NCBI RefSeq assembly: GCF_003334815.1 | Contig: NZ_QOWO01000036.1 | DNA: 37,286 bases | Source: Escherichia coli | GTDB taxonomy: Bacteria > Pseudomonadota > Gammaproteobacteria > Enterobacterales > Enterobacteriaceae | Strand: one strand, 5' to 3' | In this document: positions 22,643 through 26,190 of the stretch, piece after piece | Position numbering within the stretch: position 1 is the stretch's first letter | Layout of the letters: each line of letters begins with the position of its first letter | The notes under the pieces: model-generated | The model's database searches: none | What the model was told of the DNA's origin: nothing | What the model saw: only the letters and a program-made list of their open reading frames with translations | Made by a program: the position numbers and the translations under genes

Positions 22643-23179
22643 TTAACTGCGCGGGTAATGGATGAGGGAATGAAAATGTACGGTTTGCTCCCCACCATTA
22701 CGATAGATATGCGTGACGTCTGCAGCAAATCGAACGCCTTCCCCACAATTAAGGGTCTGCCATTCCCCATCAACGCACAGATCAAGTTGTCCATCAATGA
22801 CGACGACATGTTCGATTACCCCCTTCTCATGGGGCGTCGATTCGCTTATTGCACCAGATGCCATCTGAATCGAGAAGTGTTCAAAGCAGAGTTGTGGATC
22901 ATAAGGAAACAGCGAAGTGATCACCATCGCCTGCTGTTGTGGATCATAAACTGAAGGCGTAGCGGACTGCGGCGGAGAAATAAATGTTGAAAATGGTACG
23001 TTCAACCCGGTGGCAATTTTCCATAATGTCGCGACCGTCGGACTGGACTCATTACGCTCAATCTGCCCTAACATTGCTTTAGAAACGCCCGTCGCTTCTG
23101 CCAGTCGCGAAAGACTCCAGCCGCGCTGCTGGCGTAGTTGTTTAAGTGTGGTGGATAAAAAGCGAGCGAGATTTTCCAT
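22643..23179 (-). CDS. ydcN: XRE-family HTH regulator with C-terminal cupin domain
   Basis: 178 aa; N-terminal HTH (LKQLRQQRGWSLSRLAEATGVSKAMLGQIERNES); ATG at 23179 preceded by GGAGGAG. Confidence 0.8.
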   Translation of the reverse strand: MENLARFLSTTLKQLRQQRGWSLSRLAEATGVSKAMLGQIERNESSPTVATLWKIATGLNVPFSTFISPPQSATPSVYDPQQQAMVITSLFPYDPQLCFEHFSIQMASGAISESTPHEKGVIEHVVVIDGQLDLCVDGEWQTLNCGEGVRFAADVTHIYRNGGEQTVHFHSLIHYPRS

Positions 23180-23216
23180 GCGACTCCTCCGGCAAAACGG
23201 AAGTTTATCACTTGTG

Positions 23217-23258
23217 CGTTATAACGGACAAATGCTACGGTGCCTGTACGCTATAACG
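23217..23258. promoter_or_regulatory. Two copies of a palindromic 10-mer in the ydcN-ydcO divergent region (operator candidate)
   Basis: CGTTATAACG (23217-23226, perfect palindrome) and CGCTATAACG (23249-23258), 32 bp apart centre to centre. Confidence 0.35.
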
Positions 23259-23270
23259 CACGAGGTGACT

Positions 23271-24446
23271 ATGCGTCTGTTTTCTATTCCTCCACCCACG
23301 CTACTGGCGGGGTTTCTGGCGGTATTAATTGGCTACGCCAGTTCAGCGGCAATAATCTGGCAAGCAGCGATTGTCGCCGGAGCCACCACTGCACAAATCT
23401 CTGGCTGGATGACGGCGCTGGGGCTGGCAATGGGCGTCAGTACGCTGACTCTGACATTATGGTATCGCGTACCTGTTCTCACCGCATGGTCAACGCCTGG
23501 CGCGGCTTTGTTGGTCACCGGATTGCAGGGACTAACACTTAACGAAGCCATCGGCGTTTTTATTGTCACCAACGCGCTAATAGTCCTCTGCGGCATAACG
23601 GGACTCTTTGCTCGTCTGATGCGCATTATTCCGCACTCGCTTGCGGCGGCAATGCTTGCCGGGATTTTATTACGCTTTGGTTTACAGGCGTTTGCCAGTC
23701 TGGACGGTCAATTTACGTTGTGTGGAAGTATGTTGCTGGTATGGCTGGCAACCAAGGCCGTTGCGCCGCGCTATGCGGTAATTGCCGCGATGATTATTGG
23801 GATCGTGATCGTCATCGCGCAAGGTGACGTTGTCACAACTGATGTTGTCTTTAAACCCGTTCTCCCCACTTATATTACCCCTGATTTTTCGTTTGCTCAC
23901 AGCCTGAGCGTTGCACTCCCCCTTTTTCTGGTGACGATGGCATCGCAAAACGCACCGGGTATCGCAGCAATGAAAGCAGCTGGATATTCGGCTCCTGTTT
24001 CGCCATTAATTGTATTTACTGGATTGCTGGCACTGGTTTTTTCCCCTTTCGGCGTTTATTCCGTCGGTATTGCGGCAATCACCGCGGCTATTTGCCAAAG
24101 CCCGGAAGCGCATCCGGATAAAGATCAACGTTGGCTGGCCGCTGCCGTTGCAGGCATTTTCTATTTGCTCGCAGGTCTGTTTGGTAGTGCCATTACCGGG
24201 ATGATGGCTGCCCTGCCCGTAAGTTGGATCCAGATGCTGGCAGGTCTGGCGCTGTTAAGTACCATCGGCGGCAGTTTGTATCAGGCGCTGCATAATGAGC
24301 GTGAGCGAGACGCGGCGGTGGTGGCATTTCTGGTAACGGCAAGTGGATTGACGCTGGTCGGGATTGGTTCTGCGTTTTGGGGATTAATTGCCGGAGGCGT
24401 TTGTTACGTGGTGTTGAATTTAATCGCTGACAGAAACCGATATTGA
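23271..24446 (+). CDS. ydcO: BenE-family (benzoate-transporter-like) membrane protein
   Basis: ATG at 23271 preceded by GAGGTG; 391 aa, highly hydrophobic. The ORF track extends 87 codons upstream across the ydcN start. Confidence 0.85.
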   Translation: MRLFSIPPPTLLAGFLAVLIGYASSAAIIWQAAIVAGATTAQISGWMTALGLAMGVSTLTLTLWYRVPVLTAWSTPGAALLVTGLQGLTLNEAIGVFIVTNALIVLCGITGLFARLMRIIPHSLAAAMLAGILLRFGLQAFASLDGQFTLCGSMLLVWLATKAVAPRYAVIAAMIIGIVIVIAQGDVVTTDVVFKPVLPTYITPDFSFAHSLSVALPLFLVTMASQNAPGIAAMKAAGYSAPVSPLIVFTGLLALVFSPFGVYSVGIAAITAAICQSPEAHPDKDQRWLAAAVAGIFYLLAGLFGSAITGMMAALPVSWIQMLAGLALLSTIGGSLYQALHNERERDAAVVAFLVTASGLTLVGIGSAFWGLIAGGVCYVVLNLIADRNRY

Positions 24447-26190
24447 CATCCTCCACGCCCTGAAGGACGTGGATCCCTGCTACGTTCAGGCTGTCGCCTG
24501 AATCATTTCGGTGGGTTCCTGCTTCAACGGGCGGCCTGACTGCACCATCTCTCCACAGGCAAGAACGGCGTGCCCCGCCGCTAAAATGTTGCGAGCGCCA
24601 TTTACATCGGCGTTCGCTGTATATCCACATACCTGGCATCTGAATTTACTTTGTGACAGGCGGTTCTCTTTCGCTGTATGACCACAGTACGCGCAACGCT
24701 GGCTTGTATACGCTGGCGGAACAGCAAGCACCTGACCGCCACGCCAGAGCTGCTTGTACGCAAGCTGGCGGCGCATTTCATACCAGCCCTGATCCAGTAT
24801 CGAACGGTTTAAACCTGATTTTGCCCGGACATTGCGCCCCGGCTGGCTGACCGTACCCGCTGCTGACTTTGACATGTTGCTGACCTTCAAATCCTCAATG
24901 ACTATCATTGCGTGGTTTTTGCTGACGGCCGTTGTGACTTTGTGAAGGTAGTCCCTGCGGATATTTGCGATACAGGAATGCAGTCGCTGTATTTTGCGTT
25001 TCTGCTTTTGCCAGTTGTTGCTGAATTTGACCTTGCGGCTTAACTGTCGCTGAAGTCTCGCCAGCTTCTTCTGGTTTTTCTGAAAACTGTTTACAGGCTC
25101 AAAGACTGTGCCATCTGACAGCGTGGCGAGTTTAGCCACGCCAGCATCCAGCCCGACCATTGATGCTGAAGGGTGAACCGGAGTTGATACTTCACTTTCT
25201 GTCTGAATACTGATGTACCACTTACCGCAGGACTGGCTGACAGTGACATTTTTCACAACACCCGTGACCTGACGGCTGTTCCGGTAGCGCATCCAGCCCA
25301 GTTTCGGCAGAAAAATACGGCTGTTTTCCTGATCGAGCTTAACGCCCTGCGGGTAGCGGAATGCATCATTCTGTCCCCGCTTTTTGAATCGGGGAAAAGC
25401 AGCCCGCTTCCGGAAGAAGTTTTTGTAAGCCCGCTCAAGGTCTTTCAGTGACTGTTGCAATGGCTGTGAGGGAGAATCTTTAAGCCATTGCGTTTCAGTG
25501 GCATTTTTCCACTCAACCAGCCAGGAAGCCATTTTCCCGTAAGGGATGTATTTATTACCGGCCTCATGATTCTCATTCTGACGTGCCAGAGCACGATTGA
25601 AAACGAAACGACATGCGCCTGCGAAGCGCCTCATTTCACACTCCTGTTGACCACCGGGTCTTAACTGGAATTTAAATGCCTGTAATCGTTTCACAGGTCA
25701 AATGATACTTTGGTCTGTGAAAAAAGAAACCGATATCCGGCGTGGAAGGCATTGTGTTTTCCTGATGCATGTTCACCTGCTCTTTGTCACCAGATACCGA
25801 CGCCAGATTTTTGACCATGACGCGACAGAAAAACTACGCACTTACTTTTCAAATGTATGTGCTGATTTTGAAGCTGAACTGGTTGAAATGGATGGCGAAC
25901 CAGATCACGTCCATTTGTTAATTAACTATCCTCCCAAACTGGCGATATCCAGTCTGGTAAACAGCCTCAAAGGCGTATCGGGTAGGTGACTGCGACGAGA
26001 TCGACCAGATATTGCATTCAGGTATTACTACAAAGGCGTTTTGTGGAGTCCTGGCTATTTTGCCAGTAGCTGCGGAGGTGCGCCAATATCCGTCATCCGC
26101 CAATACATTGAACAACAGCAAACACCTGGTCAGGTGGAAAACCGCGCCTTATATCCCCGCCCTGAAGGATGGGGTTTTACGGCGCACCGG
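24440..26190 (-). mobile_element. IS200/IS605-family insertion sequence (IS609-like), about 1.75 kb; boundaries approximate
   Basis: Divergent tnpB and tnpA; no terminal inverted repeats; subterminal hairpins at both ends share the 12-mer CGCCCTGAAGGA (24456-24467 and 26158-26169); sits between the ydcO stop and the ydcL terminator. Confidence 0.6.
24486..25694 (-). CDS. insQ: TnpB (IS609 OrfB; RuvC-like RNA-guided nuclease family)
   Basis: 402 aa from GTG 25694 (382 aa from ATG 25634, which has an AGGAG RBS). Conserved N-terminus [10 protein letters not shown]; RuvC-I GLDAGV, RuvC-II IEDL, zinc finger CAYCG...CQVCG, Ruv[13 protein letters not shown] all present. Confidence 0.8.

Follow-up and report, generated by a model that had tools for sequence, protein, structure and literature searches.

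The window analysed here, a stretch of 37,286 nucleotides of Escherichia coli DNA (contig NZ_QOWO01000036.1), contains two divergent genes separated by a 91-bp spacer (23180-23270). On the minus strand lies sutR (ydcN, b1434; 22643-23179), an open reading frame annotated in NC_000913.3 that encodes a regulator of 178 amino acids, and on the plus strand ydcO (b1433; 23271-24446) encodes a BenE-family transporter of 391 amino acids. The region is 100% identical to that of E. coli K-12 MG1655, where the two genes are annotated as sutR and ydcO, and was found in 5,409 of 5,426 complete E. coli genomes. YdcN is the already-named regulator SutR, and this name is used below except where published data are quoted. 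Published positions were converted using two relations: window position x equals NC_000913.3 position 1529351 - x, and NC_000913.2 coordinates are shifted by +1976 to obtain those of NC_000913.3. This offset could be fixed because the ydcN coordinates reported as 1504196-1504732 in NC_000913.2 numbering (Kim et al., 2012, PMC3415461, supplementary file 2) use the same system as the ChIP-exo peaks considered here.

Both gene identities proposed by the first-pass annotation, an XRE/cupin regulator and a BenE-family transporter, are right. SutR carries Pfam domains HTH_3 at residues 12-64 (1.5e-16) and Cupin_2 at residues 105-171 (3.9e-10), the N-terminal helix-turn-helix and C-terminal cupin architecture of XRE-cupin regulators. 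The nearest solved structures are 1Y9Q and 6B8W, of which 1Y9Q aligns over residues 8-177, and a SutR dimer has been predicted from 1Y9Q (supplementary table of Gao et al., 2021, PMC8464067). YdcO belongs to the BenE family (TC 2.A.46): it fits the family model TIGR00843 over its full length (residues 1-382), scoring 703.8 bits where the cut-off is 203.4.

The surroundings of the pair differ among taxa. In the window, insQ (a TnpB-type putative RNA-guided endonuclease, IS609; 24486-25694, minus strand) is located 39 bp past the ydcO stop, and in many other genera an open reading frame that looks AraC-family by reading of the sequence is found on this side. On the other flank, the neighbor of sutR in Enterobacteriaceae is rlhA/ydcP. 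The gene after sutR is not rlhA in Erwinia loci L060, L065, L068 and L070 or in Serratia loci L061-L074; to judge from the sequences as read, the Erwinia gene is similar to peptidase T and the Serratia gene to a prolyl-oligopeptidase. Such peptidase-like neighbors are a weak hint toward peptide-related substrates, and the gene neighbors across the orthologous loci give no firm clue to the SutR ligand. Two repeats join the first codons of sutR and ydcO, namely a 25-nt direct repeat with 80% identity (23115-23139 and 23290-23314) and an 18-nt inverted repeat with 78% complementarity that flanks the spacer (23120-23137 with 23333-23350); these are probably chance matches. A genomic SELEX peak of RNA polymerase with sigma-28 has been reported at 1504230 and classed inside ydcN (PMC5493296). 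If NC_000913.2 numbering is assumed, it corresponds to window position ~23145, near the 5′ end of sutR. There may be cross-talk of SutR with the flagellar sigma factor, as the SutR regulon quoted in the literature includes fliAZ.

Within the spacer, two 10-mers stand out, CGTTATAACG at 23217-23226 and CGCTATAACG at 23249-23258, placed 32 bp apart start to start, just as the first-pass annotation had described them. The 37-kb window has three exact strand-matches to CGYTATAACG, all in these two places, where 0.08 are expected, and none of 100 shuffles gave as many. With one mismatch permitted, the 10-mer shows no enrichment in the window (7 against 3.96 expected), so that significance attaches to the exact pair. 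The repeat extends beyond what had been seen at first: the 10-mers are contained in a 17-nt direct repeat, TGTGCGTTATAACGGAC and TGTACGCTATAACGCAC, a pattern for which 0.04 matches are expected by chance. Comparison with orthologues further shows that the 10-mers are the cores of 20-bp palindromes with the consensus TTGTGCGTTATAACGCACAA. The first of these, O1 (23212-23231; TTGTGCGTTATAACGGACAA), holds the 10-mer at 23217-23226, agrees with the consensus palindrome at 19 of 20 positions and scores 30.8 bits on a position weight matrix built from orthologous sites only; the second, O2 (23244-23263; CTGTACGCTATAACGCACGA), holds the 10-mer at 23249-23258 and scores 29.5 bits. No other match in the window reaches 5 bits.

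The conservation of the two palindromes was followed through a scan with the YdcN protein, using one genome per species, which gave 80 loci. These cover the enterobacterial genera Escherichia, Citrobacter, Kluyvera, Kosakonia, Enterobacter, Lelliottia, Cedecea, Serratia, Erwinia and Pectobacterium, and also take in Halomonadaceae (Halomonas, Salinicola, Modicisalibacter and Chromohalobacter) and one Paenalcaligenes genome. A divergent ydcO orthologue is present in 78 of the 80 loci, and in 75 of these 78 both 20-bp operators are kept. The remaining three, Intestinirhabdus alba (L046), Salinicola avicenniae (L066) and Chromohalobacter israelensis (L077), each retain one intact operator, the one nearer ydcO; the O1 position of L046 is degenerate with nine mismatches, and the spacer of L066 is enlarged to 472 bp. 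The two loci that lack ydcO, in Kosakonia cowanii (L014) and Klebsiella indica (L019), keep sutR followed by rlhA/ydcP and have lost both operators along with ydcO, with no motif within six mismatches in 5.5 kb. There is no obvious autoregulatory site for SutR in these two genomes.

Sequence constraint is concentrated on the operators and the bases between them. In the orthologous loci, which total ~440 kb, the sutR-ydcO spacer is the only place with the core CGYTATARCG, and it also holds all but one (L015, position 1083) of the matches to the full motif with up to five mismatches. Motif frequency was judged from this collection, the 37-kb window and the ChIP-exo list. All 75 orthologous O1 sites begin with TTGT (positions 1-4), and the right end of O1 is less conserved. 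When 22 Enterobacteriaceae spacers are aligned, every invariant column apart from the two start codons lies within O1, O2 or a TG.TA...T element between them.

The distance between the operators is not constrained in the same manner. A spacing of 32 bp is typical of Enterobacteriaceae, and the first-pass annotation had read it as about three helical turns; as a constraint this does not hold, since the spacing ranges from 27 to 45 bp across the 75 loci. The distribution is 27 bp in five loci, 29 in two, 30 in one, 31 in 23, 32 in 24, 33 in four, 34 in one, 36 in one, 37 in six, 38 in seven and 45 in one, and spacings of 27 and of 37-38 bp would place the operators on opposite faces of the helix. 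Helical phase between O1 and O2 is thus not a conserved constraint, and a fixed phase is ruled out by the distribution. Mirror positions within the palindromes vary independently (of 151 sites, 74 have A at position 5 with C at 16, and 51 have C at position 8 with A at 13), and this lack of covariation points to recognition by a protein and not to a hairpin.

The identity of this protein is indicated by published binding data. ChIP-exo of myc-tagged YdcN yielded 62 sites, of which the strongest by far lies at NC_000913.2 1504105-1504137 with a signal/noise of 1344.75; the next, at dppA, reaches 140.56, about ten-fold lower (Gao et al., 2021, PMC8464067). In the window the top peak spans 23238-23270 with its center at 23254, within 0.5 bp of the center of O2 at 23253.5. 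SutR therefore occupies O2 in vivo. The same peak is also flagged as bound by RNA polymerase, and the accessible part of the report describes the YdcN motif found by MEME as palindromic (PMC8464067). The peak covers O2 only, with no separate peak for O1 among the 62 reported sites, which may result from peak calling that reports only the strongest border pair.

The orthologue-derived matrix was then scanned over 351-451 bp around each of the eight peaks that follow in strength. Seven (dppA, yehB, fucO, ttdB, caiF, mltD and ydiY) have their best match no more than 2 bp from the peak center, where chance would give a centered best match in about 1% per peak; yffQ is the sole failure. At caiF and mltD, which need no coordinate conversion, match and peak center differ by 0.5 bp and 0 bp. 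The proposal of the first-pass annotation that YdcN binds this spacer is therefore well founded, with the strongest SutR peak on the second site and the motif central in seven of the eight peaks next in strength. Sites at the other peaks, such as GCGTTATAACGC at fucO and CCGTTATAACGG at ydiY, score at most 15.6 bits as compared with the 30.8 and 29.5 bits of O1 and O2, and these weaker scores parallel their roughly ten-fold or lower signal. The highest of them, ATGAACGCTAAAACGCACAG (15.6 bits), lies between dppA and proK at NC_000913.3 3708114-3708133 (locus L082) under the second-strongest peak, in the extended upstream region of dppA, a dipeptide transporter gene. In Pseudomonas, PsdR is a regulator of dipeptide uptake, and the parallel with the SutR site at dppA may be a coincidence.

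Genomic SELEX has ydcO/ydcN among the SutR targets at the resolution of the spacer (Yamamoto et al., 2015, as quoted in the accessible text of PMC5934670), and the SutR regulon as quoted in the same text consists of cysE, fliAZ-tcyJ and sutR, with ydcO missing. The RNA-Seq tables that include b1433 and b1434 appear to concern other regulators, ydcN being absent from the set of factors whose expression effects were profiled (PMC8464067). A 2026 preprint in which the name 'SuTR' occurs was set aside, as it describes an unrelated SqrR-based reporter.

Mapped transcription start sites allow the operators to be placed relative to two promoters. The ydcO transcript starts at the A at 23248 (plus strand; NC_000913.2 1504127, minus strand, 12 reads), leaving a 23-nt leader, and the sutR transcript at the G at 23193 (minus strand; NC_000913.2 1504182, plus strand, 48 reads), leaving a 14-nt leader (PMC3415461). 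The start of ydcO had been predicted at 23248 from the conservation of TGnTAnnnT before the published value was met, and the two agree exactly; the published sutR start lies 2 nt from its prediction. The ydcO promoter has an extended -10 element TGcTACGGT at 23233-23241 (plus strand), with the hexamer TACGGT at 23236-23241 (-12 to -7), and a -35 hexamer TTGTGC at 23212-23217, 18 nt upstream of the -10 hexamer, that is formed by the left half of O1. On the minus strand, the sutR promoter has an extended -10 element TGaTAAACT at 23202-23210, with the hexamer TAAACT at 23207-23202, found in the printed upstream sequence (PMC3415461), and the right half of O1 serves as its -35 hexamer, TTGTCC at 23226-23231, with the same 18-nt distance to the -10 hexamer. 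Directly after O1 on the ydcO strand, TGnTAnnnT is present in 70 of 76 orthologous loci. The sutR-side counterpart is more variable, with TGnTAnnnT at the same offset in 31 of the 76 loci and TAnnnT alone in 24 more, 20 of which have it one base further from O1.

O1 therefore fills the interval between the two -10 elements and supplies both -35 hexamers and most of both spacers; it extends from -36 to -17 relative to the ydcO start and from -38 to -19 relative to the sutR start. O2 covers -4 to +16 of the ydcO promoter, including most of the 23-nt leader, and abuts the ydcO ribosome-binding site; with respect to the sutR promoter it lies at -51 to -70. The mapped starts and the -10/-35 spacing identify sigma-70 promoters overlapped by an operator. 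The starts are 55 bp apart, so that the two RNA polymerase footprints overlap. A simple consensus promoter scan flagged neither promoter in the spacer, and both are accordingly weak by consensus. The variation in operator spacing among taxa falls downstream of the -10 element and by calculation moves the center of O2 from about +1 to about +12 of the ydcO promoter. Since O2 always stays inside the region covered by RNA polymerase, a steric block fits better than a contact that depends on helical phase.

Taken together, the 10-mers are the cores of two 20-bp SutR operators laid over shared divergent promoters, an ordinary arrangement of repressor and operators. We consider it probable that SutR on O1 and O2 sterically represses both promoters and that this repression is relieved by a ligand. 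One SutR dimer would presumably sit on each operator. With O1 overlapping both -35 hexamers and spacers, SutR bound there would shut both promoters; if O1 is occupied, RNA polymerase would be excluded from both, giving autorepression together with repression of ydcO. SutR on O2 would provide a further obstacle, this one to ydcO alone. Binding of a small molecule at the cupin domain would then be expected to release SutR and induce the transporter. Of the elements of this scheme, the motif, the start sites and the occupancy of O2 are backed by data, and we infer repression as the direction of regulation. The layout anticipated by the first-pass annotation, a regulator controlling a divergent transporter, is supported as far as sites and binding are concerned, and control of ydcO is deduced from the position of the operators.

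The direction of regulation could differ between the two genes. SutR might be a dual regulator that represses from O1 and, from O2, activates sutR or tunes it in response to the ligand, instead of simple autorepression. The location of O2 at -51 to -70 of the sutR promoter, with its center at about -60, is near the classical positions of class I activators at sigma-70 promoters, the annotation of NC_000913.3 labels SutR a 'dual regulator', and the sole reported ChIP-exo peak, the one also flagged for RNA polymerase, is on O2. The same O2, however, lies over -4 to +16 of the ydcO promoter, which is a repressing position, and O1 sits between the -35 and -10 elements of the sutR promoter. The distance from O2 to the sutR promoter also shifts by up to 18 bp among taxa (27-45), unlike that of an activator site bound to one face of the helix, and because this distance is not conserved we rate a dual role as unlikely.

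Far less probable still is that the palindromes are operators of another factor and the SutR signal is coincidental or indirect. The IclR-family regulator PlaR (YiaJ) is the candidate to be weighed, as its genomic SELEX lists SutR and YdcO among the operons with a binding site in the spacer (PMC6958661). The motif, though, travels with ydcN orthologues to Halomonadaceae and Paenalcaligenes, recurs centered in seven of the eight SutR ChIP-exo peaks next in strength and is gone where ydcO and the spacer have been lost. PlaR might instead act as a second layer of control at the spacer. It is equally implausible that the TATAAC cores, although they match the -10 consensus at five of six positions on both strands, are -10 hexamers of divergent promoters, which the mapped starts exclude by placing the hexamers outside the cores (23236-23241 for the start at 23248 and 23207-23202 for that at 23193), or that the palindromes are DNA or RNA hairpins, which is excluded by the absent covariation, it being sequence and not pairing that is conserved; O2 is transcribed within the ydcO leader, but O1 is upstream of both starts and hence untranscribed.

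The arrangement proposed for SutR has counterparts among known regulators. PuuR, the other E. coli regulator of this kind, combines an XRE-type helix-turn-helix with a sensor domain and represses the divergent puu genes until released by putrescine. It acts locally, from several sites in the spacer between divergent genes, one of its targets being its own promoter. PuuR is also the best NCBIfam match of SutR, but the match is limited to the helix-turn-helix region and its 41 bits fall well short of the cut-off of 211, so that SutR does not qualify as a PuuR equivalog. The two further differ in operator sequence and in target, which for SutR is a BenE-family transporter and not a catabolic operon. 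As in the XRE repressors of phages (Cro/CI type, such as those of 434 or P22 C2), a helix-turn-helix dimer, as proposed for SutR, reads a palindrome of ~14-20 bp, and adjacent operators overlap the -35/-10 elements of back-to-back promoters, with autoregulation likewise proposed for SutR. The phage systems differ in that nothing observed for SutR points to cooperative switching from one state to another; its operators may stand anywhere from 27 to 45 bp apart, and the presence of a cupin domain implies that a small molecule is in control.

Binding of SutR to the spacer, the palindromic motif and both start sites were already published, and the present finding is to this extent a correct rediscovery: the published binding concerns the same locus, protein and DNA, and its peak coincides with O2. 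In its accessible parts, the SutR literature does not state an operator sequence, a second site, a relation to the start sites or control of ydcO; nor do these texts state the two-operator structure and its embedding in overlapping divergent promoters, or the conservation with free spacing and ydcO as the main conserved target. Part of this anatomy may already have been described, the 2015 SutR study lying outside the accessible texts. The present analysis adds base-pair detail by specifying the 40 bases that SutR reads and their placement relative to the two mapped promoters. It does not change thinking on how XRE-cupin regulators work.

In vivo, SutR occupies sutR-ydcO roughly ten-fold more strongly than any other site, and from Escherichia across to Halomonas the architecture has been retained. 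Both points suggest that the principal target to be conserved is ydcO, which the SutR regulon as quoted leaves out. A further step, on which we are evenly divided, is to regard SutR as a dedicated local repressor of YdcO, with O1 and O2 as its only deeply conserved, high-affinity targets and the 'sulfur utilization' regulon as a set of weak secondary sites. If this is true, the name sutR would be misleading, and the operator/regulator pair would be a biosensor for the YdcO substrate. With ydcO as the principal target, what YdcO transports becomes a testable question.
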